Positions 22,913 through 39,653 are shown, counted from the first letter of the stretch. The stretch: DNA of 64,000 bases from an uncultured Gammaproteobacteria bacterium (GCA_964416505.1 CAYQEJ010000003.1:54034-118033), one strand, 5' to 3'. Program-made: numbers and translations. Notes: generated from the sequence alone by a model not told the origin.

Positions 22913-24028
22913 ATGTTTAAAATAACTGTTTTATCAAGTAATTTGAAAAATGGTATTTCCTTTGCAAATCATGCAATTTCTTCTAAAAGCCAATTACCAA
23001 TACTTCTAAATTTCTTATTAAGTGCTAGGGAAGGATATTTAACGATATCAGCAACAGATTTAGAAATTGGAATAATAATAAAAATACCTGCTAAGGTTGA
23101 GGAAGAAGGGGATGTGAGTATTTCAGCTAAAACTTTTGTAGATTTGATTTCAAATATAGACCAAGAAAAAATAAATTTAGAACTAAAAGAGAACGTTTTG
23201 CTTCTTAAAGCAGAAAAGCTAAAAACATCATTCCCTACGCTTATTGCTTCAGAATTCCCCAAACTATATGAGACAAAAGGAGAGAAGCAGGGTGAATTTA
23301 AAAAAGAAGAATTAGAAAGAGAAATCCAAAGGATTGTTTTTTCCTCAGCGGGGGATAGTGGTAGGCCTGCTTTGGCTGGAGTTTTGGTTAGAAAAGATTC
23401 AGAAGGAAAACTAATTGTTGTCGCAACTGATGGTTATAGACTTTCTCTAAAAGAAGGATTTTCTGAAAAAGCAGAGAAGGGAGAGGGCGTAGACCTTCTC
23501 ATTCCTTCGCGTGTTGTTAAAGAGGTTTTAGGAGTGAAACAGGAAGATGATTTAGTTAAGCTTTATGTTGCAAGAGAGGGAAACCAGGTTATCTTTGAAT
23601 GTGGAGACGCAATGATTGTTGGAAGGTTAATTGATGCAGAATACCCTGATTATCAAAAAATAATTCCAGACGAATCAACCACAAAAGCCATATTTGATAA
23701 AGCACACGCGCAGGCAGCGGTTAGAGCATGTTCTGTTTTTGCTAGGGAAGCTGCAAATATAGTAAAAATGGGAATTGGTAATGGAAAAATAACTTTTTCT
23801 GCTAGTGCATCCTCGGTAGGGGAGAATGAAGTAGAGGTTGAGGCAAAAACCACTGGGGAAGAAAATGAGATTGCGTTTAATGCAAGATATTTACTTGAGT
23901 TCTTTTCAGTGATAGATGCTGAAGAAATATCTTTCGAAATGACAGGTCCTTTAAATTCGGGAGTCTTTAGGGTGGTAGGGGATAATTCCTATTTACACCT
24001 CATAATGCCAATTAGAATCACTGACTAG
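22913..24028 (+). CDS. dnaN: DNA polymerase III beta sliding clamp
   Basis: MFKITV...LLNFLLSAREGYLTISATDLEIGI N-terminal clamp domain, 371 aa, directly after dnaA. Confidence 0.9.
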   Translation: MFKITVLSSNLKNGISFANHAISSKSQLPILLNFLLSAREGYLTISATDLEIGIIIKIPAKVEEEGDVSISAKTFVDLISNIDQEKINLELKENVLLLKAEKLKTSFPTLIASEFPKLYETKGEKQGEFKKEELEREIQRIVFSSAGDSGRPALAGVLVRKDSEGKLIVVATDGYRLSLKEGFSEKAEKGEGVDLLIPSRVVKEVLGVKQEDDLVKLYVAREGNQVIFECGDAMIVGRLIDAEYPDYQKIIPDESTTKAIFDKAHAQAAVRACSVFAREAANIVKMGIGNGKITFSASASSVGENEVEVEAKTTGEENEIAFNARYLLEFFSVIDAEEISFEMTGPLNSGVFRVVGDNSYLHLIMPIRITD

Positions 24029-24029
24029 T

Positions 24030-24455
24030 TTATTTAAAACCACTTTTTAGGTTAGTTAAATCAGTTTTTTTAAGATTATATTCGTTAAGTAATTTAGATA
24101 ATTCTGTATTCGCCTCTAAAGTCCTAGATCTATTGGAAAGAAATAAGAAAGAGTCATTTAAATAATCATAACTGAGTTCGAATAGATCGGATTTATAAGG
24201 TAGGCTTCTGATCAATACTCCCAACTGTTTAGGTGCTATTTGAGCATCAGCATCTTTTTGTGTAACACCTAAAGAATCAGTGTGATAAGGTTCTTTTTCT
24301 GTCTCATCAAAGACTGGTGTAGGAGCAATGCTGCTAATATTTTTAGTTTCTTTAGGAAGAACTGTGACCACGATGCTTATAAAAATAAGATAAAAAATTA
24401 TGGCTAAAAATATTAAAAATAGAATCTTATGTTTTTTTAAAAGTTCTTTAATCAT
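24030..24455 (-). CDS. Bitopic membrane protein (N-terminal TM anchor, about 100-aa extracytoplasmic domain); last gene of the T4SS-like operon
   Basis: TM helix ILFLIFLAIIFYLIFISIVVTVL. Overlaps the upstream gene by 8 nt. Its stop is 1 bp from the dnaN stop, so the two are convergent. Confidence 0.5.
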   Translation of the reverse strand: MIKELLKKHKILFLIFLAIIFYLIFISIVVTVLPKETKNISSIAPTPVFDETEKEPYHTDSLGVTQKDADAQIAPKQLGVLIRSLPYKSDLFELSYDYLNDSFLFLSNRSRTLEANTELSKLLNEYNLKKTDLTNLKSGFK

Positions 24456-25224
24456 TTTTTCTTATTGGAACTAATGACATAAACCTCGTGTCATATCTGT
24501 TCATTTGTGTTAGGGACGGGTGATAAATAAAATTACTTGAATTACATTTATCGCTTGCGGAAGCCACTATAAGTGTTTCGTTTTTTGGATTAGCGCCTAG
24601 CACAACAAATGTATGACTACATCTTCCTTCGCATCCGACCCAATTTTCTGCTGAGCCTAGGATATACCACCCTTGATTTGTAAATCTTTGAATTGCTTCA
24701 AGATCAGCTTTAGTCAAATGTCTTCTGTTATCTCTGTCTCTGCCTCCTTCTATAAGATCAACTTGCGCTCTTTTTAACCCTATGCTTCGTAAAAAGACAG
24801 TATCTACAATTGAAAATGGACTAGTTCCTACGTATCCATAAGCATTTCCCGGTTGCCAAGCAAAACCTTTTTCGGTAAATAATTCAGCTACTGTAGCAGG
24901 ATTTGCAACTCCTCGATCACTGGGGCGAGCTTTTAGTCCATAAGTCGCAAGTATCATGGCTATAGATGATGGTCCACAGCCTGAGCTGCCGACCGTACCA
25001 GTATCATAACGATTATTACCCCATGGAGAATCAAATTGACAGTAGTAAACAAAATTCCCGGGTTTTGTACCCGTGCTGGTGTCTCCTCCGAAATCTGATC
25101 CTTTACCAACCACCGTGGTTACAGTGTCGTGAGCTATACCCGTTTGCTGTGCAAAAGCAGGAGACAGAATAATTAAGCTGAGAAGTAAATTAATTAGGAA
25201 AAGAAGAGAGAGGATTTTCTTCAT
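24448..25224 (-). CDS. Secreted papain-like cysteine peptidase (Peptidase_C39_2/CHAP-like), candidate cell-wall hydrolase of the T4SS-like cluster
   Basis: Signal peptide MKKILSLLFLINLLLSLIILSPAFA. YYCQF...SSGCGPSSIAMILATYG contains the candidate catalytic Cys in the C39-like context, and ...CSHTFVVLG contains the candidate His. Confidence 0.55.
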   Translation of the reverse strand: MKKILSLLFLINLLLSLIILSPAFAQQTGIAHDTVTTVVGKGSDFGGDTSTGTKPGNFVYYCQFDSPWGNNRYDTGTVGSSGCGPSSIAMILATYGLKARPSDRGVANPATVAELFTEKGFAWQPGNAYGYVGTSPFSIVDTVFLRSIGLKRAQVDLIEGGRDRDNRRHLTKADLEAIQRFTNQGWYILGSAENWVGCEGRCSHTFVVLGANPKNETLIVASASDKCNSSNFIYHPSLTQMNRYDTRFMSLVPIRKND

Positions 25225-25262
25225 TTAACAATATTTAAGCACAATTGATTTAGTCTTACAAC

Positions 25263-25784
25263 CTAACACCCAGAAGGGAGTGGGTTAAATTGGGAATTTC
25301 TTGGAAAATCATTTGCAGCAAAGGCACCTAGATAAAACCTTACTGGTAAATTGCATAGTCCGTTTTTTGAAAAACCTTGATTAAGTAGATAATTTTCTGC
25401 TTCAGTTTTGGCTAGATCAATGTCTTTTGAATTAATTTCTATTTCGAAGTCATCTAGAGACTCAACGTATTGGATAATAAAATTTTCATTTTGAAAAATA
25501 ACTCCTGATTTGTTGTCTAACGGCGTTAAGATTTTGGCTTTTGCATCTAGGTCTGAAGGAGGAAGTGGCTGTCTAGTAGTTAGTTTTATTAAGGATTTTC
25601 CTAAGCTTCCAGGTTCATAGTTAACAACTGGCTTTGTGTATATTTGCTTCGAAGGGGTAGGTATTGGTTTTTGCGATGATCTTAAGTCGGAAAGAGTAGA
25701 TGCTATAGCAAGTAAAACAAATATTACTACTAAAATAACCGCAGAAATCAGATATATTATATTTTTTTTATTCTTTAAGTTCAT
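25263..25784 (-). CDS. Bitopic membrane protein (VirB8-like topology)
   Basis: N-terminal TM IIYLISAVILVVIFVLLAIA followed by an approximately 140-aa external domain. No sequence motif to confirm a VirB8 fold. Confidence 0.4.
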   Translation of the reverse strand: MNLKNKKNIIYLISAVILVVIFVLLAIASTLSDLRSSQKPIPTPSKQIYTKPVVNYEPGSLGKSLIKLTTRQPLPPSDLDAKAKILTPLDNKSGVIFQNENFIIQYVESLDDFEIEINSKDIDLAKTEAENYLLNQGFSKNGLCNLPVRFYLGAFAANDFPRNSQFNPLPSGC

Positions 25785-25785
25785 C

Positions 25786-28053
25786 TTACCTTATTGTATT
25801 ATATTCACCGTTTGTGCAAAGTTCAGGTGCGCCTCTGCAAACATTGGTTTCGCATTGCCAATAATCGAAATCTAAATTTCTTGGTTCAAGCACGATTTTT
25901 TCTCTGTCTACAGCTACTTGTATTTGTTCTTTCCACTCCACATTACCTCTATTGTAGGCAAGAGGATTGCGGTTGGAGCCCATTTGAAAAGCTCCCCAGG
26001 CTCCTTTGGGATCGGGTGTGCAAACGCTTCCATCGCTATTACATCTAAAATATGCATTGGGTCTATGGCCGCTTTCACATTCAGAAAGTAAGTACCAAAA
26101 TCTATAGTTTTTTGGATCTTTTGACTTAAGTTCATTCCCGAAATCGTTAAGTGTATAGTTGCAGCTTGGGTCTCCGAAATTTCCTTTAGGTGCGTTTACG
26201 GAATTATACTTTCCTGAGCAACTATCTCCAGTAGCAGGAGGTCCTCCGCCTCCAGTAGCGCCTAGAATAGAAATTGACACATCAAAAGTGCTATCGTCTT
26301 GGGGACGAAGAATTAAAGTAAAAGAATACATGGTTTGTTCGCCTGTTTCTGAAGGCGAATTATCCTTTAATCGCCAAGTGATTGCGCTTGAGTTTGTAGG
26401 AGATCTGTATATCCCCGTTGTGCCGCTCGGAATCAAAGTAGTCTCTTCAGGAATATCTGCGCTTACTGAAATATTTTCGATAGGGTCTACTGCATTTCTT
26501 TTATCGTAAATAACGATTATTTCATATCTCAAATCAACGCCATTGGGAGAAGATTGCGGGCCATAAATTGTATAGCTTATTCCTGCATAGCGGCTATTTG
26601 TGATTGGTTTTGTTAGATCTGAAGTGTTAAAGAAGATTTGGCCTATTATCACAAATATAAAGATTATTAGAGCTATTATGATAACAGCTGGTAAGCTAAT
26701 GGTGGTAACCGTAATCCCAATTCCTGTAATAATTTTTGCTAATACTAGAGAAATAACGCTTATCGTGGCAGCGGCTGCACTTGTAGCCACGCCTATTATT
26801 GCAGAAATTGCTGTTGTTAAAAAACCTGCGATGGAAGATAAAAGTGAGCCAAGTATTGATCTTGCAAACAGTCTTTCTAAATATCCAATTGGATCTAAGA
26901 ATTTTTTTAATTTAAAAAACTTTTTGTTTAGGTTCTTAAATCTATTAATTGATTTAGATTTAGACAGACGGTTACCTAGTCTTGTTTTGAAAAATCTTTT
27001 GTATAGCCAGTTTTGATTTTGAGTTGATTGTTGCGATTGGGATTTGCTTTGGTTGGTAGTTTGAGGAGCGTTAGCGAAATTATTTTGCAATACTGGGAGG
27101 GAGGCAGGAATAGGAGAAGTTAATGGCTGTGGTTTCGTAATCTGTGTTGGGGAAGGTTTGTTTCTTCTAAGTAAACGGGATGTGATCCCAGGATTTTGAT
27201 AGGTATATGTTATGTCTTTCTGCCTTTTCCTTTCGATAGCTGATGTTAGCTCTGGGTCATTGTATTGTGCTGCCCATTTTTTTGCATTTTGTGGAGAATA
27301 TGTGACCAGATGTTCTTCAATTTCTTCCTGCGCATTGGAAATTGCTCGTGATCGATCTAAATATCTAGCGCTTGGATCTCTACTATCATAATCTTTTGCT
27401 GTTTTTTCGATATATCTTCGTCTAGTTTCTAGATAATCAGAGTAAGTAAGATTTTTGTTTTCTAGGCTTACTTTCTCAAAAGCCAAGTCGAGTTGGGTAT
27501 TTTGAGGGTCTTTGGAAAGCCATTCGCGTGCCTTTTTAGGATCGGCTCTAACTAATAATTCATGGTATTCCCGTCGTGCTCTTTCATATGCCTCCAGTCT
27601 GCTTTTTGCAACAGGAGCATTTCTTTTTGAGGGATTTTGATTATATCTCCTGTATTCTTCCTCCCACTTTTTTGCAAAATACTCAGCATATCTATCTGCT
27701 TCTTTTTGAGATTCTTCATATGACCCCCCGCGTCTTAAAAGGTTAACACCTGCGATAATAGATCCTAAAGCTAAGCTCTGTGGATTTCTGGGGCTGGAGT
27801 TTTTATCTTTATCTTTTGACTCAATTTCTATATTTGCTCCCTGCGATCGTTGAGTATTTATGTCTTCAATGCCTTGCCAAATTCCTTGAGTATTTAAAAT
27901 CTGATTTTCAAATAAAATTTTTTCAAATGATTGCCTATTTCCAGCTCTAAAAGCATTAAATAATTGATTTTGGTCGAATCTGGATAAATTTCCAAGTTGT
28001 GAGGCTGCCCACTTAGCATTTTCTAGGCTTAATTGTTTCTCGTTTTCATCCAT
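25786..28053 (-). CDS. Polytopic membrane protein with a C-terminal Rpf/transglycosylase-like (lysozyme-fold) domain; VirB1-analogous peptidoglycan hydrolase fused to a channel-like membrane core
   Basis: 755 aa. About 390 aa of cytoplasmic Q/S/R-rich N-terminus, then at least 3 TM helices (residues about 395-470). The Cys-rich external C-terminus ends with LLSECESGHRPNAYFRCN...KGAWGAFQMGSNRNPLAY...WKEQIQVAVD...WQC, matching the CESG...G.FQ...EQI.VA...W..C pattern of Rpf-type transglycosylase domains. Confidence 0.5.
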   Translation of the reverse strand: MDENEKQLSLENAKWAASQLGNLSRFDQNQLFNAFRAGNRQSFEKILFENQILNTQGIWQGIEDINTQRSQGANIEIESKDKDKNSSPRNPQSLALGSIIAGVNLLRRGGSYEESQKEADRYAEYFAKKWEEEYRRYNQNPSKRNAPVAKSRLEAYERARREYHELLVRADPKKAREWLSKDPQNTQLDLAFEKVSLENKNLTYSDYLETRRRYIEKTAKDYDSRDPSARYLDRSRAISNAQEEIEEHLVTYSPQNAKKWAAQYNDPELTSAIERKRQKDITYTYQNPGITSRLLRRNKPSPTQITKPQPLTSPIPASLPVLQNNFANAPQTTNQSKSQSQQSTQNQNWLYKRFFKTRLGNRLSKSKSINRFKNLNKKFFKLKKFLDPIGYLERLFARSILGSLLSSIAGFLTTAISAIIGVATSAAAATISVISLVLAKIITGIGITVTTISLPAVIIIALIIFIFVIIGQIFFNTSDLTKPITNSRYAGISYTIYGPQSSPNGVDLRYEIIVIYDKRNAVDPIENISVSADIPEETTLIPSGTTGIYRSPTNSSAITWRLKDNSPSETGEQTMYSFTLILRPQDDSTFDVSISILGATGGGGPPATGDSCSGKYNSVNAPKGNFGDPSCNYTLNDFGNELKSKDPKNYRFWYLLSECESGHRPNAYFRCNSDGSVCTPDPKGAWGAFQMGSNRNPLAYNRGNVEWKEQIQVAVDREKIVLEPRNLDFDYWQCETNVCRGAPELCTNGEYNTIR

Positions 28054-28055
28054 AT

Positions 28056-29999
28056 TTACTTATTTTGGTCAAAATCAGAGAAGCCAGGTGCAATTTGCGG
28101 CGTCTGCGGAGGAACAAAACCTGATTGATTCATGGGACTAATGGGCGCTGGGTTTTGGTAGGGTGCTGAAAAAGAAGTCTCATTCATTATTCTTTGCTCC
28201 TCCTGTCTTCTTAAAAGTTCTTCTGGATTTGAAGTAATAATCTTGTGTTCAAACGGAGCAGATATCACTTTCATGGAAACATGACTTTGTCCTGCAAAAA
28301 ATAAACCCTCTCCGACGTTTGCTGATAAAAGTAGTTGTTTTTCCTGCTGTGTTAAATAGAAAATTTGAGACACTAAATCTATCTCAGTAGGGCTTTGTTT
28401 TAAAAGCATCTGAATGGACGAGTTTGAAAGAATTGCCTTTCCATAATCGGTGGAGAGAAAGTCCTGAACATCCTGGGTAGCTGTTGTTAGTGCAAGATAA
28501 TATTTCCTAGCTCTTTTAGCTATTCCATGGATGAAAGAGGCAGAGTCTTGGTATTTCATAAGGTACCAGGCCTCATCAAGCACTAATAGTCTTTTTTTAA
28601 GATCTTTTCTAACTCTCGTCCAAATGAAATCAAGAATTATATGCATAGCCACGGGGCGAAGCTGATCTTCGAGTCCTCTAGTTGAAAATGCAGTGAATGG
28701 ATTTTTTATATCAAAGTTTGATTGTTGGTTAAAAATTCCAGCCATGCTTCCTTTTATAAATTTCTCAAGCCTTAGTGCTAGGTTTTTAGAAATTTCATCC
28801 TCGTTTCCCAAGAGAACTTTATATAGATCTTCCATGAGAGGAGGCTTCTTTGTTTGTGTAGATGGGTCTGGTGTAATTCCTTTTTGCCTGTAAACTTCTA
28901 CTAATGCTCGATCAAGAATTGCGTCATGCGCTGCATCAAGTTCTCCCATAACGATTCTAAGAAGAGCATGGAGCGAAAGGATTTTTAATCCTAATTCATT
29001 TTCTCCTTGTTCATAGATACCAGATAAGTCGAATGGATTAATCTTGATAGGAGAGGCGGGGGTGAACTCAATATATTCTCCGCCGAGGGTTCTCGTGAGT
29101 TCCCCATATTCTCCTTCAGGATCAATTACTATGATTTCAGCGCCAAACATAAACTGTCGCATAAGCTCCAGCTTGATAAGGTAAGATTTTCCTGCTCCAG
29201 ATTTTCCGAAAACCACTTCGTTTGCATTTTCTAGAGAGTATCTGTCAAAAATGATTAATGAATCATTTAGCTTATTTAGTCCATACATTACTCCTTTATC
29301 TTGGGTGAGAGTGGCAGATGTAAACGGAAACGTTGAAGCGAGGGAAGTGGTGTCCATGTTTCTGGTCAAGAATAATTGATCGTCTGCAATTGGAATGCTT
29401 GATTTAAAACCAGCATCCATTTGAAGGGTTGCGGGTTTAGCTAGGACAAGAATTGAAGCCAGAAGTGTTTTGAGTCTTTTTGATGCCTCTTCAAGGTCCT
29501 CTTTTGTATCAGATATTAATGTAATGTAAAGGCTAAATTGAAAAAATCTTTCTATTCCCTTTGCGAGTTCTTCCTGTACCGAAAGTGCGTCTTCTAGAGA
29601 AGCTTGGACGGTAGGATCTAAGACTTTATTATTCTGTGTTTGTTCCATAAGGGTTGCTTCCATTTCGCCAATTTTTCTTCTTAGATCTTGGAGGGCATCT
29701 GGTGAAGATGTGGGATAGCAGAACATAGAAAGATTTAGTGAATGTTCAAAATCAATAAGAGGTTCAAGCCAATTAGGTGAAACAAATCTGGGGTATCCCA
29801 CAACGAAAAAAGTTTTGTGATATTTTTCTCCAATTCTAATATGCCCAAAATCAACTTCGATAGAAGAAGGGGCTATGATATCCGTAACAGAATTCATGCC
29901 TCTTTCGATTCTTTTTATTCCCTCATTTGCAGGGTGAATCGCTGCGCCAGGAATAGGATTAGTTTTTAAGCTTTGATCTTTTTTGTTAAATAGTTTCAT
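28056..29999 (-). CDS. VirB4/TrbE/CagE-family type IV secretion ATPase
   Basis: 647 aa, no N-terminal TM. N-terminal CagE_TrbE_VirB-type region (IAPSSIEVDFGHIRIGEKYHKTFFVVGYPRFVSPNWLEPL). Walker A VFGKSGAGKSYL, Walker B LLVLDEAWYLM, and C-terminal LTTATQDVQDF, typical of VirB4. Confidence 0.75.
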   Translation of the reverse strand: MKLFNKKDQSLKTNPIPGAAIHPANEGIKRIERGMNSVTDIIAPSSIEVDFGHIRIGEKYHKTFFVVGYPRFVSPNWLEPLIDFEHSLNLSMFCYPTSSPDALQDLRRKIGEMEATLMEQTQNNKVLDPTVQASLEDALSVQEELAKGIERFFQFSLYITLISDTKEDLEEASKRLKTLLASILVLAKPATLQMDAGFKSSIPIADDQLFLTRNMDTTSLASTFPFTSATLTQDKGVMYGLNKLNDSLIIFDRYSLENANEVVFGKSGAGKSYLIKLELMRQFMFGAEIIVIDPEGEYGELTRTLGGEYIEFTPASPIKINPFDLSGIYEQGENELGLKILSLHALLRIVMGELDAAHDAILDRALVEVYRQKGITPDPSTQTKKPPLMEDLYKVLLGNEDEISKNLALRLEKFIKGSMAGIFNQQSNFDIKNPFTAFSTRGLEDQLRPVAMHIILDFIWTRVRKDLKKRLLVLDEAWYLMKYQDSASFIHGIAKRARKYYLALTTATQDVQDFLSTDYGKAILSNSSIQMLLKQSPTEIDLVSQIFYLTQQEKQLLLSANVGEGLFFAGQSHVSMKVISAPFEHKIITSNPEELLRRQEEQRIMNETSFSAPYQNPAPISPMNQSGFVPPQTPQIAPGFSDFDQNK

Positions 30000-30643
30000 A
30001 TTTTCATTTTTCCAGTAACCATGGGAGTTATGATATCTTTGGATACTCCCGAGCTGCTTTCGTTGTTATAGATCTCATAAAAAAGCCTAATTAGTTCGTC
30101 TTTTTCCAAAATTTTTGATTTCAAACCGGATCTTAAAAGCTCTTGGATTATAGATGAAGATTTGGAAGTTAATAAATTTTTTGCATCTCTTATTATCGCA
30201 TCTCTGTCTCTTGAGTTTGCAATTCCTCCAGCTCCTTTTTCAAGATACGAGTACGAAATGGAGATATAAAATTTTTTATCAAGAACTGTATTTTTTTGAA
30301 CAAGTTGAGAAACGAATTCTTTATACATTCTAATGTGTTCTGAGAATGTTGGGTTAGATGCTTTCGCAGCTTGTTCCTCGAGTAGTTTTTGATAATTACT
30401 GATATCGAGTTTTCTGCTCAAAATTACTATTTGAATAGGAAAAGATAGGGAGTTGATGAGCGAAGCATAAGAGAGAATTTTTATTTCTTGTTCTTCTTTG
30501 GATTGTAATGCAAAATTTGTCGCTGTAACTTCTATAACCATACACACACTTCCTCCGGACATAAGAACTAGGCTGTCTATAATGTCCTCAATCTCTATAA
30601 ACTTTTGTGTTGTCGCTATGGTTTTTGGGGCAGAGTTTTTCAT
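29996..30643 (-). CDS. Hypothetical cytoplasmic protein (215 aa) translationally coupled between the VirB3-like and VirB4-like genes
   Basis: No TM or signal. Overlaps the VirB4-like start by 4 nt and abuts the upstream gene. No recognisable family. Confidence 0.45.
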   Translation of the reverse strand: MKNSAPKTIATTQKFIEIEDIIDSLVLMSGGSVCMVIEVTATNFALQSKEEQEIKILSYASLINSLSFPIQIVILSRKLDISNYQKLLEEQAAKASNPTFSEHIRMYKEFVSQLVQKNTVLDKKFYISISYSYLEKGAGGIANSRDRDAIIRDAKNLLTSKSSSIIQELLRSGLKSKILEKDELIRLFYEIYNNESSSGVSKDIITPMVTGKMKI

Positions 30644-31942
30644 TTAATTAAATAATTCCCTTCTTAATTCTTCCCTGGGATCTACTGAAAAAATTTCAAG
30701 CGGCATAATTGGTGTTCCGTTCGCTTCAATTTCCACGGTGTCAAACTTATTTTGTCCTTTTGGATCTTCAATAGAAACTATGTATTTCCCGTTTTGAAGA
30801 GAAGTTGCCGATGCAAATTGCCCAAGCCCATTTGTTTTAAAAGCTCTCACTGGATTGTCTTCTGGATCTTTTACCTCGACTAGAATATTTGGTAGGGGAT
30901 TCCCTCTAGGATCTTTAATGATCCCAGTTATTAGATTTGGATCTGCGGGAGCTGTGGGGAGGCCAACGCTTTTTACTAATGCAGGAGGGGCTTTTCTAAC
31001 TCTTTGGGTCTGGGGAAGAGGTTGTGCCGTAATTGGATTAAATTTCGTTTTTTCTGTTCCTTCAAGTCTAGCCTTAAGAGATAATAATTCTTTCTCAAGC
31101 GCCTCCTTTTGTCTGTTTGCTTCGATAAGCATTTTCTCAAGTTCTTCTGATTTTTGATGAGTAGTTGAGTCTGTTTGAGGAGTTGAGTTATTTTCTATAG
31201 CTTTTGCTTCAACAAGCTCTTTCTGAAGTGCGGAAACTTGTTCTTCGAGTTTTCTTTCATTTTCTTCTATTTTTTCTTCCTCCTCTTTTTCTTTGATTTT
31301 TTCAAGATCATCAAGATTCCCAGACATAATAGGTTTATTGTTGGGATCATTTAATTCGATTACTCTGCCTGGGACCTGAGTTATAGGAGTGTTTATTTGT
31401 GGTGCGCTCTGTGGCTGCGGAGCAGGAACAGGTTGAATGATTTGGGCTTGTGTTTGGATCGGGGTTTGTTGGATAGGTTGTTGATAGTTGATGGGGGTTG
31501 GTGTTTGTATCTGTGTTTGTGTTTGTAAAGGCATATTGGTAGGTGGTAGTGGAGCAGGTGTGTTAAGTTGAGGAGGAGTTGATTGGAGTACAGGATTTAA
31601 TGGTGTTTGTGGGGCACTAGGATTCATTTGTGAGAGATTTCCACCAGTTTTTCTATAGATATATTGGGTAGGGGAGAAAAGAGCTCTAATGAAATTTCCA
31701 ATCATGGTATCCATAGGTCTTCCGTCAATAGGAACAAACGCTAATGCAACACCAAGAGAGAGAAATAATACTGCTAAGGGGAGTCTAATCAGTATAAATA
31801 TCGGTAAGATAAAAAATATAAACCAGGCAATTACTGTTCCACCGGCAAGGTAGGCAAACTGCTTTACGGTCATGTTGCCAATAAGTTTAAATTGAAATCC
31901 TGTAATGTCTTGTGGTATTGGATGGTTTTCCATAGGCAGCAA
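30644..31942 (-). CDS. PrgI/VirB3-like two-TM N-domain, followed by a P/Q/T-rich linker, a coiled coil and a C-terminal beta-sandwich (carboxypeptidase-regulatory-like) domain
   Basis: The N-terminal 100 aa are MLPMENHPIPQDITGFQFKLIGNMTVKQFAYLAGGTVIAWFIFFILPIFILIRLPLAVLFLSLGVALAFVPIDGRPMDT, a hydrophobic hairpin as in PrgI/VirB3-family proteins that precede VirB4. The C-terminus IKDPRGNPLPNILVEVKDPEDNPVRAFKTNGLGQFASATSLQNGKYIVSIE is Big/CarbopepD_reg-like. Confidence 0.45.
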   Translation of the reverse strand: MLPMENHPIPQDITGFQFKLIGNMTVKQFAYLAGGTVIAWFIFFILPIFILIRLPLAVLFLSLGVALAFVPIDGRPMDTMIGNFIRALFSPTQYIYRKTGGNLSQMNPSAPQTPLNPVLQSTPPQLNTPAPLPPTNMPLQTQTQIQTPTPINYQQPIQQTPIQTQAQIIQPVPAPQPQSAPQINTPITQVPGRVIELNDPNNKPIMSGNLDDLEKIKEKEEEEKIEENERKLEEQVSALQKELVEAKAIENNSTPQTDSTTHQKSEELEKMLIEANRQKEALEKELLSLKARLEGTEKTKFNPITAQPLPQTQRVRKAPPALVKSVGLPTAPADPNLITGIIKDPRGNPLPNILVEVKDPEDNPVRAFKTNGLGQFASATSLQNGKYIVSIEDPKGQNKFDTVEIEANGTPIMPLEIFSVDPREELRRELFN

Positions 31943-32070: not shown

Positions 32071-32700
32071 TTAATTTTGACAAGTGTAGATTATATCTCC
32101 CGCATGATTAAGCTTTTTGCATGTTCTGTTAAGAGCACAGTATCCATGAGGATGCGCTTCGCTGCAAGGAAATTGGCATGTGTAGTGACTACCTGTATCG
32201 TTTGGCACGCAGATTCTACCCGTAGGGCATATTCCGTCCGGATGTTGATTGTTGCATCTATAAGCGACGCTATCGGGAACACATTGATCAAATCCAAATG
32301 TTGAAATGCAGGCGTTTACTCCAGTTAGTCTTATTATGAAAGGTAATATTATTACTGATAATAAAATTAAGGTTAATCCCAAAATAGAAAAAGTAAGTGT
32401 TTTTTTGGCCCCATCTGCTTTTTTTGCATCACCTCCAGAGCTAACAAATTTAAATCCGGAAATTATAATCATGGCTACTGCGACAATTCCTGCGAAAATA
32501 AACACCCAGTAAATTACGTTTCCTAGGATAATTGGTAGGCAGTTAAGCGTTGCTACCTGGTTCGATCCGCCAGTTAGACATCCAGATCCTCCAAGAGGGG
32601 TAAAATTTGCAGCAAAAACATTTGGGGTGAAAAAAAGAAATCCAGAAATTAACAAAAAGAAAAATAAAAACTTTTTCACTGATAAATAAAAGCGTAACAA
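32071..32700 (-). CDS. VirB2/TrbC-like pilin paralog 1 with a Cys-rich C-terminal extension
   Basis: Signal peptide, hydrophobic helix, loop SGFKFVSSGGDAKKADGAKK, second hydrophobic helix, then a 75-aa tail containing 11 Cys. Confidence 0.5.
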   Translation of the reverse strand: MLRFYLSVKKFLFFFLLISGFLFFTPNVFAANFTPLGGSGCLTGGSNQVATLNCLPIILGNVIYWVFIFAGIVAVAMIIISGFKFVSSGGDAKKADGAKKTLTFSILGLTLILLSVIILPFIIRLTGVNACISTFGFDQCVPDSVAYRCNNQHPDGICPTGRICVPNDTGSHYTCQFPCSEAHPHGYCALNRTCKKLNHAGDIIYTCQN

Positions 32701-32721
32701 AGAAGATGTTAAATTACAAGA

Positions 32722-33141
32722 TTAACGAGGAGCTACTAGTGTAGGGAGAGTGAAGCTGCTGTTAAGTAGGCTTCCGATTCCGAAGAATTGTAATGCGAGG
32801 TTGATGATGAAGTAGGAAAGAAATACTAGTACTAATCCTACCAGTGCAGCTACGATCATTCCTCTTGCAGCATCTACTTTTCCTTTATCTCCACCTGATG
32901 TAATCCATTTAATTCCACCATATACTAGAAAACCTAAAGCTAGCAATACAGCCACTATAAATAATAGAAGAATTATTGAAGAAACTAGTGGGCCAATTCC
33001 TGCGTTACCCATATTGCAAAGAGTTGTAAATCTTCCGCCTACGCAGAGATCAAGTGTACCGCCACCTACAGCAGCAAAAGTTTTAGGGGTAAACGTTAAG
33101 AAAGAAGCGATCGATAACGATAGAGCAGTTAATTTTTTCAT
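32722..33141 (-). CDS. VirB2/TrbC-like pilin paralog 2
   Basis: Signal peptide ...TFA|AVGGG, TM1, loop WITSGGDKGKVDAARGMIVAA, and TM2. This is the classic conjugative-pilin topology. Confidence 0.55.
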   Translation of the reverse strand: MKKLTALSLSIASFLTFTPKTFAAVGGGTLDLCVGGRFTTLCNMGNAGIGPLVSSIILLLFIVAVLLALGFLVYGGIKWITSGGDKGKVDAARGMIVAALVGLVLVFLSYFIINLALQFFGIGSLLNSSFTLPTLVAPR

Positions 33142-33195
33142 TACTTATTTGATCGTATTGTGTTTTTAATTGTTTGTCAAGTACCTTTTCTGAAT

Positions 33196-33513
33196 CTAGA
33201 CTATTTGTCCAATTCCTAAAAACCAACCTAAAACATTTATTATCAAAAAAGAGGAAAGAGCAACTAGAAGTCCTATAACTGCATATGTAATTTTTTTTCT
33301 TGCAGCGTCTACTTTTCCTTTATCTCCACCTGATGTAATCCACTCAATGCCTCCCCAGACAAGAAAAGCGAGTGAGGCGAGTGTTATTAATACAAAAGCC
33401 CAGGTAAGACCATTTGTAATTACGTTTTTAAGAGTATTGAGGCCGCCTGTGGGCATCCCTGCGACAGGTTCTATAGAATATGAGCCGGGTAAGTTAAATG
33501 CAATTTTTTCCAT
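33196..33513 (-). CDS. VirB2/TrbC-like pilin paralog 3
   Basis: Shares the near-identical loop WITSGGDKGKVDAARKKITYAVIG with paralog 2, and has two flanking hydrophobic helices. Confidence 0.55.
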   Translation of the reverse strand: MEKIAFNLPGSYSIEPVAGMPTGGLNTLKNVITNGLTWAFVLITLASLAFLVWGGIEWITSGGDKGKVDAARKKITYAVIGLLVALSSFLIINVLGWFLGIGQIV

Positions 33514-34517
33514 TATCTCCCAAATCCTGGTAATCCTAGAATATCACGAGTTATTAATTCAAGTATAACTAAAGAAAATATAATAAATATAAATCCTACT
33601 ATTGCTGCCGTAAGCTGTTCTCTGGCATTTTTTACCTTATCAGGATCACCTTGGGATGTCATAAGTTTGTATCCGGCGACCAAGATTATTATGAATATTA
33701 TTCCGCCTCCAATACTTAAAACAAATCCAAGTGCCCATCTGGTAAAGTCAGTTGCTCCAGTGCTAACCATTCCAAATGCTGTTCTGACTCTTAAACATCC
33801 GCGCGCGTCATTATAGAAATTTCCATTTTTTTCGCAAGGTAAAGATAGAGGAGCATTCTTGGCATAATTTATGACTGAAGGATCATACAGGCTTCCGGCT
33901 ACGCATGTGCCTGTTCTACAGTCTCCTGTGGTAAGCGAATTGCAATAAAAACCCTCAGAGCACGTTCCCCTTACTCTCCCTCCTTTAGAACAGATTTTAT
34001 AATCGTTTGATGTTGGATCTATTTCGCAAGAATTATTTTGTCCTGGGCCCGTGGGTTCAGGGGAAGGATTTTGACCACCAGCCGTCCTAACTACTATGCC
34101 ATTGCTTCTGCAGGATGGTTGACAAGTGCCGTCTTCTTTGTAAACGCAGAGTCTAACCGTATATGTGCCAGCGCCTAAATTTCTTAGATCTCCTAGGGTA
34201 TGATCAGTCTCGCTAAATGTAACACCTGAATCTGGGTTTATAAGAATATCTTCAGATACGCATCCTTCTTGAAATTTTCCAGCTTTTGTTAATGAATCAA
34301 GAGGGCATGGGCCAGTATTTGAAGTATTAAATGCTACATAAAGACGTGTTCCTGCATCGCGGATATTGGTGAACGTAATGCTTTTAAATTTTCCTACTTG
34401 AAGTTGAGTGGGATCAGTCGTAAAAGTACAAGCATCATCTGGCCCGGCATATGCAATGGTAGTTTTTAGAGCGAAAAAAGCAATGAAAATTAACAAGGGA
34501 AAAATTATTTTCCTCAT
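33513..34517 (-). CDS. Secreted Cys-rich domain protein with a C-terminal VirB2/TrbC-like pilin module (paralog 4)
   Basis: Signal peptide, then an approximately 230-aa Cys-rich extracellular domain, then a pilin-like TM1-loop-TM2 with a degenerate MTSQGDPDKVKNAREQLTAAIVGF loop. Stop and start overlap with paralog 3. Confidence 0.5.
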   Translation of the reverse strand: MRKIIFPLLIFIAFFALKTTIAYAGPDDACTFTTDPTQLQVGKFKSITFTNIRDAGTRLYVAFNTSNTGPCPLDSLTKAGKFQEGCVSEDILINPDSGVTFSETDHTLGDLRNLGAGTYTVRLCVYKEDGTCQPSCRSNGIVVRTAGGQNPSPEPTGPGQNNSCEIDPTSNDYKICSKGGRVRGTCSEGFYCNSLTTGDCRTGTCVAGSLYDPSVINYAKNAPLSLPCEKNGNFYNDARGCLRVRTAFGMVSTGATDFTRWALGFVLSIGGGIIFIIILVAGYKLMTSQGDPDKVKNAREQLTAAIVGFIFIIFSLVILELITRDILGLPGFGR

Positions 34518-35939: not shown

Positions 35940-38900
35940 ATGACACACGAAATAATTATGAGACCAGGTGAATTGACAGTGCAAAGGGGACAATCTACAC
36001 TGAATAAGGAGCAAAGTATTTTTATGCCAGACGCAGGAATACAAACAGAAGGAGTTCAGCCAGTAAAACCAGCTATTAGAGCTGAGGTTTTACCTTTACC
36101 TAGAGTAACAACCAGCTTGTCTTTGGAAGGACTAACCCCGACTCAGCGTGCTGACGCTTTAAGGACAACAAGGCTTCTCGAAGGGCTCGGTTTGAAGCCT
36201 GACCAAGTTACTTCCAAAGGAAGAACAGAGCAAAAAGCAGGTCAAGTTGTTGAGAATGCACAGCTTGATAGTGAAAATCCGGAAGCATCAACTAAATCGC
36301 AGGAAATTTTAGGAAAAGGAGAATTAACAGATCAGGATAGAGCTGATCTTTTTGGATTAAACGCTGGTAGAATCGCAAAAGCAGAAGAGCTACTTAAAGA
36401 TAGTCTCGGAAGAGAATTAACTGATAAAGAAAAAGAAGGAATCTTACGCGCTCATTTTGTGGGAGCAGGGGAAAAAGGAAAAAACGGAGAAGAATCCGGA
36501 GTGTTTAATGTAACACGAGAGCAGCTTTCGGAAAAAGCAAAAATATTAAAAGATGCTGGATTTGATCAGGAGCAAAGAAGGGAAATCATAGAATCAGGTC
36601 TTACTCAAATGAATCCACCACAGCCTCTTACTCCTCTGGAGGCTAGAAACCAGGCAATTCTGGCCTTAGGGAATTTAACATTAACTGGAAAGCTTTTGGA
36701 AATCAGAGATAACATTTTAAGACTTCATAATGCTGCAATTGGAAATCCAGCTGCAGGTATTCCCGTGATTAATCCAGATGGTATTACCTCTGACGCACTA
36801 ACAGCGCTTCATAGAGAATTTTATAATAAATTTAATAAAGTACTTAATAATCCAAATACACCACCGCCACCCGAAGTTCTTCTTTTTGAAAGAAGACTTA
36901 AAGAAATTGGTGATCTTGATGCAAGAACACACGAGCAGCGTGGTCCACAAGAAGATTTCCATAATGAATATGATTTCATTAGGCTGCAATTGAATAGTAC
37001 TCCTCAATTATTGCCCAATGGAGCTCCAAATCCCCAGAGGGCAATTTTGGAAGAAGAGTTAGTTTTGAGTGTAGAAAATTTTGTGGGACATGGCATAAAC
37101 CCATCCAGTGATAGTATTTATGACTCTACTCTTAAAAAAATAGTGCAAACTGATACTTTGGTAAGTGATCCTGATCTTCAGGCAAGAATTCAGTCATCTG
37201 TTCAGAGGTTGGTTATTAGAATTGTGGGAATGCCACTTCAGGACGATGTGGGAGATTTTGATATTGGGTTTTATGGTGGAATTAATTTTTCAGCAATTAA
37301 AAATTTACTTTATTCACAGTCATTGGATCCTGCATATTTTAGATCTCAGCAAGAATACAATGCCTTTAGCAACTTGAGAAGAGACCAGAACTTAAGCGTA
37401 GAAGGTCTGTACCATTCTATGAGAATAGTTCATGAAATCAATAAAATGATTGTTCAGAATCAGCTTGATGCAGCAAATCAATCGGCTCCAAACTTAGGTC
37501 CTGAAGCACTGCAAATGCTTGCCAAGACAAAAGGTGCTGGCGCGATATTTAGAATTATGGAATCTGGTCTTTTGGAACTATTGGCAAAAGATGGATACAT
37601 GGCAAAGGGTTCGTATGATGCTCTGATGGGCAAGGCAATGAGTCAACAAACTGGAAGATATGATAATTCTCAAACGTCATCGATAGCTTCACAAGTTAAA
37701 GAAATGATTAGCGCTTTAAGATCATTGCCTCCTGGTATTATTCAGGCAGGAGATTTACAGGAGTTAAGAGACATGGAAAATTGGGAAATTGATTTAGCAT
37801 TTAATCTTGGAAGAAATATGTATAACGTTTTACATAGGTCTGCGGAGCTGGCTTCATGGGGAAGGCTTCCGAAAGGACTCAAGCTTTACACAAATTCTGT
37901 TTTTGGAGGATTTAGAAATATTTATAATCCTGCCCTTCATGTTATAGAAAGGTTTAAGCCCGGCGAAGGTAGAGGAGGATACAGATTATTCCAGATGTTT
38001 ATGGATGCGATGCAAAGACGAAGAGAAAGAGAGGGATTTGGTCATATGGGGCTTAAAAAACTTCATGGAGATTTAATTAAGTATTTTGAACTGCCTTCGA
38101 TTGCAGGTATGAGAGGGTATGTCTCATCTTGGAAAGCGAACGAAGGAGTTCTTAAAGTAATCGAAACCGGTTACGCTCCAAGAGGTAGATTTGCAGATCT
38201 AGATATATTTTCGCAAGTACAACTTAGAGAAGCAGGTTCTCAGATTTTTGATAGAAATGGAGGGGTAATTACTGGAAAAGGAATTGGATATTTCCTGGAT
38301 GTAGATGCTCTTACTTTTAAAGATGGTCAAGGGAGAACATATTCATGGAAAGATTTTTCAGATGCTGAGCAAGCTGATTATTATAGATCAATTTTCTTTG
38401 AGCCAAATACAGGTGGACATGGTCATGATCCAGTGTTAAAAAGAGATATAAACATAGGATTGGGAACTCTTTATAAAACAGCACTTGGGCCAGCAGGGGG
38501 ACATGAAGCACATAAAAATCATCATCATTTAAATGAGGTTAAAGAAGAAATAAGGCGTCTTATCTGGGAAAGAGTAGGAGCGGATAATCCCCTTGCAGTT
38601 TTACCGTATCTACATAGGCTTGAATTTAGTGGTGATCATAAACCAGTTGATGTGGGCCATCACGGGACGCCGCACTTAGTAGATGTTGCAGGCACAAAAT
38701 TGCTTGAAGATATTTATGATAGGCCTGGTTGGCAAGATTTTCAAGTGAAGCTTATGCTTCTAAATGAATGGAGAATGTCAAAAATTAAACAAGGAAATAC
38801 TAATTACACATTGCAGGACGCAATAAATGAAATGGATACAGCAATGGGTGTTCAAAGAGATCCTGTGACCCATGCAATTATTCAGGGGGGAAATCAAAGC

Positions 38901-39653
38901 CTAAATCTTAGTGGGGATGAATATGCATGGTATCAGGAGATAGCAAGAGGTGCGAAATTAGCTTCAGCAGATATGGCAAATGTAAGATTTGGATTTGTGG
39001 CTTTCGCAAACGATCTCCCACTGGAGCAATTTAACTTTGAGGTTTTAGGTGACAACTCTTATCAGAGGCATTTTGGCGATATTGTACAGATTAACAGTTC
39101 AACGGGGGCTATGATAGAGGCATTCGATAATTTGGGAACAGTAAAAGATTATCATGGAATAGTTGAGATTGTGGCAAAATTTGAAAAAGGTATAACGGCT
39201 GTGCATGGAGATGGTGCAGCTAAGGATAAAGCTGCTCCGTTGGTTGAGGCAATTACAAGATTTTTCAGGAGAGGAGAAAATGGCGGCTCAAAGAGTCATA
39301 AGGATGAAAATGAAAAATCTTTTTCTGAAAAAGCTAAGCGTTATTTTAGGCAATGGGATGAAGTTCATGGTCTACTTCAGCAATTTCATAAGGCTAATTC
39401 TATCGCACAGCAATTTTACAACGTTGAGGCATTAGCTCTTGATAGGCATCAATTGTATATGCTTCAGGAAGAGCTTATGGCAAATGGTCTCATGGGGCAT
39501 GATCAAGAAGAAGAGTTCAGGGAAAGATTCGGAGGATTCTTAGGATTTATTAATAGAATGTTTATTGAGCAATTTAGTAGGCTTTTGAAAGTTACATCTC
39601 TAATCACTACGAGAAACTTACTGGGTAGTTCATTTAAGGGTATAGGTCAATAA
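35940..39653 (+). CDS. Giant hypothetical protein (1237 aa), no signal peptide or TM, no recognisable catalytic motif; candidate cargo or effector of the adjacent T4SS-like apparatus
   Basis: Single uninterrupted ORF. GC visibly higher than neighbouring genes. No HUH relaxase motif, no Walker motifs. Divergent from the regulator gene and convergent with the VirB6-like gene (stops 4 bp apart). Confidence 0.55.
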   Translation: MTHEIIMRPGELTVQRGQSTLNKEQSIFMPDAGIQTEGVQPVKPAIRAEVLPLPRVTTSLSLEGLTPTQRADALRTTRLLEGLGLKPDQVTSKGRTEQKAGQVVENAQLDSENPEASTKSQEILGKGELTDQDRADLFGLNAGRIAKAEELLKDSLGRELTDKEKEGILRAHFVGAGEKGKNGEESGVFNVTREQLSEKAKILKDAGFDQEQRREIIESGLTQMNPPQPLTPLEARNQAILALGNLTLTGKLLEIRDNILRLHNAAIGNPAAGIPVINPDGITSDALTALHREFYNKFNKVLNNPNTPPPPEVLLFERRLKEIGDLDARTHEQRGPQEDFHNEYDFIRLQLNSTPQLLPNGAPNPQRAILEEELVLSVENFVGHGINPSSDSIYDSTLKKIVQTDTLVSDPDLQARIQSSVQRLVIRIVGMPLQDDVGDFDIGFYGGINFSAIKNLLYSQSLDPAYFRSQQEYNAFSNLRRDQNLSVEGLYHSMRIVHEINKMIVQNQLDAANQSAPNLGPEALQMLAKTKGAGAIFRIMESGLLELLAKDGYMAKGSYDALMGKAMSQQTGRYDNSQTSSIASQVKEMISALRSLPPGIIQAGDLQELRDMENWEIDLAFNLGRNMYNVLHRSAELASWGRLPKGLKLYTNSVFGGFRNIYNPALHVIERFKPGEGRGGYRLFQMFMDAMQRRREREGFGHMGLKKLHGDLIKYFELPSIAGMRGYVSSWKANEGVLKVIETGYAPRGRFADLDIFSQVQLREAGSQIFDRNGGVITGKGIGYFLDVDALTFKDGQGRTYSWKDFSDAEQADYYRSIFFEPNTGGHGHDPVLKRDINIGLGTLYKTALGPAGGHEAHKNHHHLNEVKEEIRRLIWERVGADNPLAVLPYLHRLEFSGDHKPVDVGHHGTPHLVDVAGTKLLEDIYDRPGWQDFQVKLMLLNEWRMSKIKQGNTNYTLQDAINEMDTAMGVQRDPVTHAIIQGGNQSLNLSGDEYAWYQEIARGAKLASADMANVRFGFVAFANDLPLEQFNFEVLGDNSYQRHFGDIVQINSSTGAMIEAFDNLGTVKDYHGIVEIVAKFEKGITAVHGDGAAKDKAAPLVEAITRFFRRGENGGSKSHKDENEKSFSEKAKRYFRQWDEVHGLLQQFHKANSIAQQFYNVEALALDRHQLYMLQEELMANGLMGHDQEEEFRERFGGFLGFINRMFIEQFSRLLKVTSLITTRNLLGSSFKGIGQ

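Follow-up and report, generated by a model that had tools for sequence, protein, structure and literature searches.

Results

A type IV secretion operon beside dnaN and dnaA

A 64,000-nucleotide stretch of an assembled genome (GCA_964416505.1, CAYQEJ010000003.1:54034-118033; "the window" below means this whole stretch) carries on its minus strand a run of genes whose products mark it as a type IV secretion system (T4SS) operon of Gram-positive type, with pilins, a PrgI/VirB3 protein and a split VirB4 ATPase of the CD1110 family. The subject of this work is the set of genes that follows virB4: p755, for a membrane protein ending in a putative wall-cutting module, p173, p258, for a secreted putative peptidase, and p141, each named for its length in amino acids (Table 1). 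An original prediction, made from the DNA alone, had placed two wall-breaching modules in the 755- and 258-residue proteins within one operon of such a system. The coordinates of both open reading frames and every motif quoted from them are recovered on translation, and the broad lines of that interpretation hold: two folds of wall-hydrolase type are indeed encoded by the operon, in a T4SS context. To it are added here an immunoglobulin (Ig)-like domain of the DUF11/CLIPPER type in p755, the p173 gene, and its paralogue p141.

Spacing between consecutive genes from p432 to p141 is only -8 to +38 nt, so these genes are taken as a single operon; p755 starts 2 nt downstream of virB4 (p647), and p141 overlaps the p258 stop by 8 nt. 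A gene for a winged-helix regulator also lies upstream, on the same strand as the T4SS genes. Promoter and terminator scans of the operon gave matches at chance level. The operon converges on dnaN (plus strand), with dnaA just beyond, and the stop codons of p141 and dnaN are 1 nt apart (24028-24030), which leaves no room for a terminator between the two. The T4SS-dnaN-dnaA arrangement is found again in most related loci, and the gene order is kept in more than 15 candidate phyla radiation (CPR) loci, ending at dnaN/dnaA. The neighbourhood examined around the operon shows no relaxase or coupling protein. An origin as a mobile element was considered and rejected, since the position beside dnaN/dnaA is conserved in many lineages (see also PMC12102498).

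The closest loci elsewhere belong to metagenome-assembled genomes of Patescibacteria (Levyibacteriota, Woykebacteria, Shapirobacteria), with VirB4 identity from 87% down to 53%. The best explanation of these sequence relationships is that the source bacterium is one of the Patescibacteria (CPR, ultrasmall), apparently Microgenomatia/Levyibacteriota-like, with a chromosomal, MPF-FATA-like T4SS. The organism has a peptidoglycan wall to breach, since the window encodes two class A penicillin-binding proteins (55730-58111 and 58211-60379). Ten of the records collected for comparison (L001-L005, L007, L011 and L014-L016; related loci are numbered with L, individual relatives with P) are titled "uncultured Gammaproteobacteria bacterium" despite their Patescibacteria-type operon, which looks like a third-party annotation (TPA) labelling error.

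A family of lysozyme-like modules at the C-terminus of p755

In p755, CESG falls at residues 659-662, GAFQ at 687, EQIQVAV at 709 and YWQC at 731-734, and from these the region had been read as an Rpf/transglycosylase-like module. Direct searches say little: a Pfam scan of the isolated lysozyme-like or beta domains at E<=10 returns nothing, phmmer of p755 and p258 directly against the PDB gives noise only, and a word-index search with full-length p755 finds the query alone, probably because low-complexity N-terminal words dominated the candidates. A family was instead gathered by an exhaustive HMMER search with residues 380-755, which yields 383 cluster representatives (50% identity) at E<=1e-3 and 258 at E<=1e-10. 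The core that these share corresponds to p755 residues ~598-740 and nearly always sits at the very end of its proteins (median distance to the C-terminal end, 1 residue). All members looked up are named "hypothetical protein" only. The consensus of the module reads C.GKY..GNFGDP.C...W...CES.YNPNAY..GAWGLFQMG..GDV.W..Q..NA..Y..YW.C.

Conservation was counted in an alignment of 147 family members. At Glu660, the predicted catalytic acid, 139 of the 141 ungapped members keep the Glu, the next residue is Ser (Ser661) in 131, and the Cys612-Cys631 pair is nearly universal. Cys659 and Cys734 tend to occur together (both in 99 members, neither in 14, one only in 21; Fisher p ~9e-7, kinship ignored). 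Where lysozyme has its second Asp, ~125 members have Ala, a pattern consistent with a single-Glu enzyme, as in lytic transglycosylases.

The best PDB matches of a 38-member profile are C-type lysozymes (E 0.008), with Glu660 aligned to the catalytic Glu35 and the "GAWGLFQ" of the module to their "DYGIFQ"; Glu660 also aligns with its catalytic counterpart in human lysozyme, Slt70 and RpfB. When the 38 members are scanned individually against Pfam, SLT is matched by 13 of 38 at E<=1 (best 9.7e-5), Transglycosylas (Rpf type) by 2 (best 0.0023), C-type lysozyme by 2 and Phage_lysozyme2 by 2. In two relatives a further wall-hydrolase domain stands after the Ig-like domain and ahead of the C-terminal module, namely Glucosaminidase in P0070 (E 4.6e-25) and an RlpA-like double-psi beta-barrel (DPBB) in P0109 (L019 8001-9731; 26.8 bits, against a cutoff of 28.8). 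A confident predicted structure of the p755 module likewise displays a lysozyme-like fold, and its top lysozyme-like structural match is 6ta9. This match is DslA (Bd0314), an SLT-domain protein of Bdellovibrio that serves as a prey-exit lysozyme. The profile match, the relatives' Pfam matches, the single-Glu pattern and the neighbouring wall-hydrolase domains make it a well supported prediction that the C-terminus of p755 is a catalytic module of the lysozyme superfamily.

The superfamily half of the earlier reading thus stands. Its narrower half, an Rpf-type domain, is not supported, since no Rpf structure appears in either PDB search with the module, and hhalign against single references (HEWL, human lysozyme, RpfB, M. 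luteus Rpf, Slt70, T4L) gives RpfB a probability of 1.2% against 70% for human lysozyme (the reference sequences being approximate and the comparison of low power, the values serve for ranking only). A likeness to Rpf (PF06737) is visible in the small lysozyme-like domain, the CE(S/G)G motif, and the Cys beside the Glu that would pair with the Cys of the C-terminal W.C. This putative cysteine pairing is the sole trait properly Rpf-like, whereas from the Glu to the GLFQ motif the sequence resembles SLT and lysozymes rather than Rpf. With SLT (PF01464) and GH22 the module shares an E-S motif at a helix end, then an "NPNA" stretch plus the strand motif G-(L/I)-(F/M)-Q, and with lytic transglycosylases the absence of a counterpart to lysozyme's second Asp, although p755 itself falls below detection for both the SLT and the C-type lysozyme Pfam models. 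We know of no equivalent in SLT or GH22 of the N-terminal Cys-Cys element "C.GKY..GNFGDP.C" or of the C-terminal YW.C.

Architecture and topology of p755

The original prediction described p755 as a large polytopic membrane protein, with a bundle of transmembrane (TM) segments and a 390-residue, Q/S-rich cytoplasmic region. The bundle does not survive inspection: there is a single hydrophobic block of ~80 residues, with at most 3 TM segments. The N-terminus is predicted to be cytoplasmic, as proposed, although over its ~400 residues K, N, L, S, R, E and Q each make up ~8-9%, and only the linker at residues ~300-350 is Q/S/T/P-rich. The net charge is +13 over residues 350-392, before the hydrophobic block; this positive-inside signal places the N-terminus inside, and an odd number of TM segments then places the C-terminus outside. 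The predicted topology is N-in, C-out, with the Ig-like domain and the enzyme module extracellular. Of the 38 diverse members scanned individually, 22 match DUF11 in the region before the module. The N-terminal region of ~400 residues is conserved in the close lineage only and has no known look-alike, and its profile shows no similarity to the proteins that occupy the PrgK slot in Firmicutes. A role for p755 as a polytopic translocon subunit of the VirB6/PrgH kind was rejected, as the protein has at most 3 TM segments where at least 5 are required, and shows no homology (no VirB6, TrbL or PrgH match in Pfam or NCBIfam).

p258, a predicted secreted peptidase of C39_2 type

That p258 is secreted, as originally proposed, agrees with its predicted N-terminal signal peptide and AFA|Q site. 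Translation gives the motifs GSSGCGPSSIAMILATYG (containing Cys83) and SHTFVV (containing His204). Against Peptidase_C39_2 (PF13529) the full protein reaches 18.7 bits and its mature domain 19.5 bits (E 0.0015-0.0027), short of the gathering score of 24; the alignment spans only profile positions 2-58 of 143, i.e. the Cys half. Close homologues are few: two proteins stand alone, and in L001 and L005 the homologous part is the C-terminal domain of a ~640-aa protein encoded at the same place. A profile of the p258 family retrieves P0154 (E 5e-35), P0155 (6e-18) and P0156 (2e-7), all with PF13529 matches, and the PF13529 threshold is passed by the syntenic protein of L001 (29.5 bits), by P0154 (35.6 bits) and by P0156 (49.1 bits). 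Cys83, His204 and Gln63 are invariant in 8/8 aligned sequences; the residues on which the original prediction relied for catalysis, Glu660 in p755 and this Cys and His in p258, are conserved in the relatives of both proteins.

An AlphaFold2 (AF2) model of p258, made from 6 input sequences, is of modest quality (predicted local distance difference test, pLDDT, 66; core elements 75-91). A fold search with it nevertheless gives clear matches to clan CA (papain-like), with no CHAP or NlpC/P60 structure among the best 60. Of the "C39/CHAP-like" peptidase first proposed, the C39_2 part is borne out by the relatives' profiles and the fold model, and the CHAP part falls, since p258 has no match to the Pfam CHAP model (PF05257) and no such fold is found among those 60 structures. 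Sequence and model together identify p258 as a predicted cysteine peptidase of papain-like fold, with C39_2 the nearest sequence family. It shares with PF13529 (e.g. PDB 3erv) the Cys motif "Q...W...GCGP(T/S)(S/A).AM" and the later His, and differs by long insertions at residues 97-140 and 155-170. A role at the wall is suggested by context and analogy: P0156 fuses its C39_2 domain to Phage_lysozyme2 (phage-tail lysozyme), L024 carries Peptidase_M23+YkuD in the place of p258, and SEML1_0006 of Southlakia (see Discussion) combines similar functions.

Gene order after virB4 and its counterpart in Gram-positive systems

A protein with the module is encoded directly after virB4 in at least 11 further loci, L001, L002, L004-L007, L015, L018, L019, L020 and L024, among them those of the distant members P0017, P0109, P0011 and P0153; another member, P0084, has a pilin array as its neighbour. 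The gene that follows prgI-virB4 on annotated plasmids of Firmicutes encodes a large peptidoglycan hydrolase. The protein in this position is a 653-aa CHAP protein with a TM region at residues 286-319 in an Enterococcus mundtii plasmid, where a bitopic 233-aa protein follows, and a 1050-aa NlpC/P60+M23 protein in a Pontibacillus plasmid, where a further gene follows. All known Gram-positive VirB1 homologues are membrane-anchored, some with an intracellular N-terminal domain, and the intracellular domain of PrgK is sizeable (2025 nomenclature review, PMC12857230). The membrane fusion in p755, which the original prediction considered an unusual architecture, is by that standard ordinary, and the E. 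mundtii protein has the same layout.

In position and architecture p755 is the counterpart of PrgK (pCF10) and TraG (pIP501), i.e. of the VirB1 class (ALPHA/DELTA classes of T4SS), because its gene lies directly downstream of virB4, after prgI, and its product has the predicted membrane-anchored layout of N-terminal domain inside, TM region and ectodomain with the enzyme domain outside. A small bitopic protein comes next in both cases, and glycan-cleaving plus peptidase activity is combined (as predicted here for p755 plus p258). The profile of the p755 module shows no detectable similarity to the Firmicute PrgK-slot proteins. There are also differences from PrgK/TraG. The peptidase is a separate gene for a Sec-secreted protein, of C39_2 type rather than CHAP or NlpC/P60, so that the division of the two predicted activities between two proteins, a point on which the original prediction holds, is a real departure. 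A DUF11 Ig-like domain is inserted in p755, and its glycosidase module belongs to a family invisible to Pfam models. The system is chromosomal beside dnaA/dnaN, has VirB2-type pilins, and comes without a relaxase or coupling protein in the neighbourhood examined.

A conserved partner and an exchangeable slot

In 11 loci the gene directly after that of the module protein encodes a p173 homologue; one of them, L025, is not a T4SS locus. An iterated hidden Markov model (HMM) search and alignment identify p141 as a p173 paralogue; the p173/p141 family has no match in Pfam or among PDB sequences. By analogy, the position of p173 corresponds to that of PrgL/VirB8-like genes in Gram-positive systems.

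The next position, occupied here by p258, is a slot for secreted proteins with differing domains: C39_2, a ~270-aa HExxH protein (no Pfam match), M23+YkuD or an unrecognised domain. The catalytic domain is swapped even between closely related lineages. All slot proteins share a motif shortly after the signal peptide (HDTVTTVVGKGS, IIDAVTTIVGLGS, NSNTVETRVGNPV), a hydrophobic strand ending in [VI]-G-x-[GP]. An HMM of this motif matched, among 783 open reading frames, only slot proteins, including four outside the training set. Such a motif may be a docking or targeting signal. The C39_2 domain makes up the last third of a ~640-aa protein in L001 (5846-7765) and L005 (12522-14462); the N-terminal 400 residues have no Pfam match, and an internal copy of the slot motif, KDNATTIVGAGTS, lies at residues ~180-190.

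The genes of the operon diverge at uneven rates. Within the same genomes (L001-L007, L015), identity is 79-87% for VirB4, against 31-36% for p755, 30-42% for p173 and 24-28% for p258. Where VirB4 identity is 82-87%, these three proteins reach no more than 24-42%.

Table 1. Features of the operon (positions in the window) and slot proteins of related loci (positions in the locus named)
Feature	Position	Strand	Basis or remark
p141, 141 aa	24030-24455	-	Bitopic; p173 paralogue; last gene of the operon
p258, 258 aa	24448-25224	-	Predicted Sec-secreted papain-like cysteine peptidase, C39_2 type
p258 His204 codon	24613-24615	-	Predicted base; 8/8; verified
p258 Cys83 codon	24976-24978	-	Predicted nucleophile, within GCGP; 8/8; verified
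p258 residues 32-43, HDTVTTVVGKGS	25096-25131	-	N-terminal slot motif; sequence comparison and motif HMM
p258 signal peptide, residues 1-25	25150-25224	-	AFA|Q cleavage; hydropathy and translation
p173, 173 aa	25263-25784	-	N-terminal TM, ~135-aa ectodomain, conserved Cys pair
p755, 755 aa	25786-28053	-	Membrane-anchored; VirB1/PrgK slot of the T4SS operon
p755 residues 598-740	25834-26262	-	Lysozyme-superfamily module; predicted catalytic
p755 Glu660 codon	26074-26076	-	Predicted catalytic acid; codon verified by translation
p755 residues ~492-597	26263-26580	-	Ig-like beta-sandwich, DUF11/CLIPPER type; probable spacer or wall-spanning domain
p755 residues 400-481	26611-26856	-	Hydrophobic block, at most 3 TM segments; Kyte-Doolittle scan and translation
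p755 residues 1-399	26857-28053	-	Predicted cytoplasmic, no recognisable domain; charge and hydropathy
p647, VirB4 ATPase, CD1110 family	28056-29999	-	NCBIfam conju_CD1110, 388.9 bits against a cutoff of 325
Split VirB4 (p215 + p647)	28056-30643	-	
p215, TrsD/TraC-like VirB4 N-terminal piece	29996-30643	-	Matches the N-terminal part of Mbov_0397 VirB4
p432, PrgI/VirB3-like N-terminus with long C-terminal extension	30644-31942	-	Pfam PrgI, E 6.3e-11
Array of three VirB2-like T4SS pilin genes	32071-34517	-	All three above the gathering score of PF18895
Slot protein with motif, L002	14541-15359		
Slot protein with motif, L006	14732-15544		
Slot protein with motif, L007	13987-14703		
Slot protein with motif, L015	14730-15530		
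Slot protein with motif, L018	7768-8508		
Slot protein with motif, L019	10912-11640		
Slot protein with motif, L020	6597-7319		
Slot protein with motif, L024	10981-12111		

Discussion

The T4SS of the Patescibacteria has been described, with a monoderm-type VirB4, a TrsD piece, PrgI, VirB2 arrays and no relaxase, beside dnaA/dnaN (Quinonero-Coronel et al. 2025, PMC12102498), and the overall system is thus already known. It is essential for epibiotic growth in Southlakia, the only Patescibacteria tested (PMC10633639; PMC12102498), and the same is reported of the peptidase and lysozyme homologues encoded downstream of virB4 (PMC12102498). No T4SS had earlier been shown to be needed for the growth of the bacterium that owns it. 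VirB1 homologues are mostly unlinked to virB4 outside Paceibacteria, unrecognised glycosidases have been suggested as possible substitutes, and VirB6 homologues are scarce in Microgenomatia (PMC12102498). What is new here is a module family invisible to Pfam, large (at least 383 clusters at 50% identity) and usually encoded right after virB4, as a candidate for the missing VirB1-type hydrolase in lineages of Microgenomatia type; it varies a theme that is well known, and its activity is predicted. In this branch of the CPR, p755 and p258 probably supply the wall-cutting function that standard searches missed beside virB4.

The T4SS cluster of Ca. Southlakia epibionticum ends with SEML1_0006, a protein in which a cysteine proteinase domain accompanies two lysozyme-like ones (Wang et al. 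2023, Table S2); the best structural match of domain 1 of this protein is ECOD e6tabA1. Compared by description, SEML1_0006/0007 resemble the present pair in placing lysozyme-like and cysteine proteinase functions downstream of virB4, near the replication origin. The entries e6tabA1 (for SEML1_0006 domain 1) and 6ta9 (for the p755 module) are presumably the same protein, DslA/Bd0314. In Southlakia, PF01832, PF18013 and the cysteine proteinase are fused and Pfam-detectable, with an M15B-like peptidase next door, whereas here a single Pfam-invisible module forms the C-terminal end of a membrane protein whose cytoplasmic region is long, and a gene of its own encodes the peptidase. The predicted difference from both Southlakia and PrgK/TraG is an anchored glycosidase and a secreted peptidase on separate polypeptides.

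We infer that both proteins cleave peptidoglycan, and consider it reasonably probable that p755 and p258 are wall-remodelling components of the T4SS that act on the producer's own peptidoglycan, with higher confidence for the glycosidase and lower confidence for the substrate of the peptidase. In such a scheme p755 would be the functional counterpart of VirB1/PrgK, with its N-terminus of ~400 residues in the cytoplasm, the short hydrophobic block as anchor and the Ig-like DUF11 domain as a spacer. The disulfide-stabilised module of ~140 residues would cut glycan strands of the cell's own wall, with Glu660 as the single general acid, and the opening made locally would admit the VirB2-type pilus together with the secretion channel. 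p258 would be exported by Sec and released as a Cys83/His204 peptidase, most likely cleaving stem peptides or cross-links, the job that in PrgK/TraG-type enzymes falls to a fused domain, CHAP or NlpC/P60, and might dock to the machinery through its short N-terminal motif.

Several results weigh against this reading. Searched with HMMER, p258 is sub-threshold for Peptidase_C39_2, and p755, whole or as the module alone, has no Transglycosylas, SLT or CHAP match (Pfam, E<=10) and no NCBIfam match. The profile match of the module to PDB lysozymes, at E 0.008, is borderline, and when a two-domain model of p755 is compared with the PDB by Foldseek the best 50 matches are all beta-sandwich. Linkage to the T4SS is also imperfect. 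The member P0088 (locus L025) lies in a housekeeping context with no T4SS locus. Among more distant CPR loci, L009, L011, L012 and L016 have a different protein after virB4, without the module, and L008, L010 and L013 have no gene between virB4 and dnaN. The classical role of the C39 family is leader-peptide cleavage. Finally, p755 diverges far faster than VirB4, which also fits a host-facing role.

That last point belongs to an explanation in which the enzymes are directed at the wall of the host (the basibiont), either breaching it to give the pilus or channel access to the host membrane or releasing fragments as nutrients. It is shared by p173 and p258, which likewise diverge far faster than VirB4 in the same genomes, and is joined by the swapping of the secreted peptidase (C39_2, HExxH, M23+YkuD), as expected of host-interface or antagonistic proteins, by the soluble, secreted nature of p258, and by the top lysozyme-like structural match, DslA (Bd0314) of Bdellovibrio, with its role in prey exit. 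The essential role of the T4SS in epibiotic growth, in the only Patescibacteria tested, points the same way (PMC10633639, PMC12102498). Yet p755 agrees in position and layout with the VirB1 homologues that act on the cell's own wall in Gram-positive conjugation, and its reach is limited, since it is anchored in the producer's membrane and its ectodomain has only ~275 residues; we therefore consider a host-wall target unlikely. A more elaborate version would make the post-virB4 genes a CPR-specific, fast-evolving wall-breaching cassette aimed at the host wall during epibiotic attachment, composed of an anchored lysozyme-like enzyme with a pilin-like Ig domain, an obligatory p173-family partner and an exchangeable peptidase that docks by its motif. 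The uneven divergence and the swapped slot are compatible with a host-facing, fast-evolving cassette, and do not demonstrate it; taken jointly, these elements seem to us quite unlikely.

For p258 alone, the nearest family (C39_2), the pilin array upstream, and the loose resemblance of the slot proteins' hydrophobic-strand-plus-Gly motif to a cleavage signal would suit a processing or maturation protease that cuts a leader or propeptide, e.g. of the three VirB2-like pilins or of the operon's other secreted proteins. This is a tentative alternative, on balance somewhat unlikely, as sister lineages hold bona fide peptidoglycan enzymes (M23+YkuD) in the slot, the relative P0156 is fused to a phage-tail lysozyme, the T4SS hydrolase of Southlakia fuses lysozyme-like and cysteine proteinase domains, and the motif occurs also in lineages without a C39_2 gene in the operon and on p258 itself. 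The module of p755 might, on the other hand, be a non-catalytic peptidoglycan-binding or scaffold domain and p755 a channel or stalk subunit that substitutes for VirB6/VirB8, with hydrolysis left to other enzymes. VirB6 is scarce in Microgenomatia (PMC12102498) and none is recognised within the operon, two of the three enzyme-like domains of PrgK are reported to be regulatory and non-catalytic (PMC12857230), and the cytoplasmic region of p755 is large and conserved, its Ig domain pilin-like. We regard this as very unlikely: the Glu-Ser dyad (139/141, 131) and the GLFQ-type substrate-groove motif are near-invariant in at least 147 divergent members, which argues for retained catalysis, at most 3 TM segments are unlike the polytopic VirB6, and a 534-aa protein encoded nearby (39658-41262) is an alternative VirB6 candidate.

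Along with the module family come a conserved partner protein and a slot in which secreted peptidases are interchangeable, and the definition of the family should improve the annotation of CPR genomes. Glu660 in p755 and Cys83/His204 in p258 offer concrete targets, and whether epibionts cut their own wall or that of the host becomes testable.

Other features of the window

The PrgI-like protein p432 has 432 residues against the ~90 of the Pfam PrgI model, the remainder including a Pro/Gln-rich region and a charged, coiled-coil-like stretch. Its C-terminus is a CarboxypepD_reg-like beta-sandwich (E 3.8e-7, just under the cutoff), and the same architecture is found in L018 and L024.

Three large open reading frames without a Pfam match lie beside the T4SS cluster, at 35940-39653 (plus strand, 1237 aa), 39658-41262 (minus strand, 534 aa) and 41426-43864 (minus strand, 812 aa). 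The 534-aa protein has a signal-like N-terminus and 4-5 hydrophobic segments and could be a diverged VirB6-type translocon candidate. A protein of the class A beta-lactamase family is encoded at 8927-9814 (plus strand; Beta-lactamase2, E 1.2e-47) in this small CPR genome segment.

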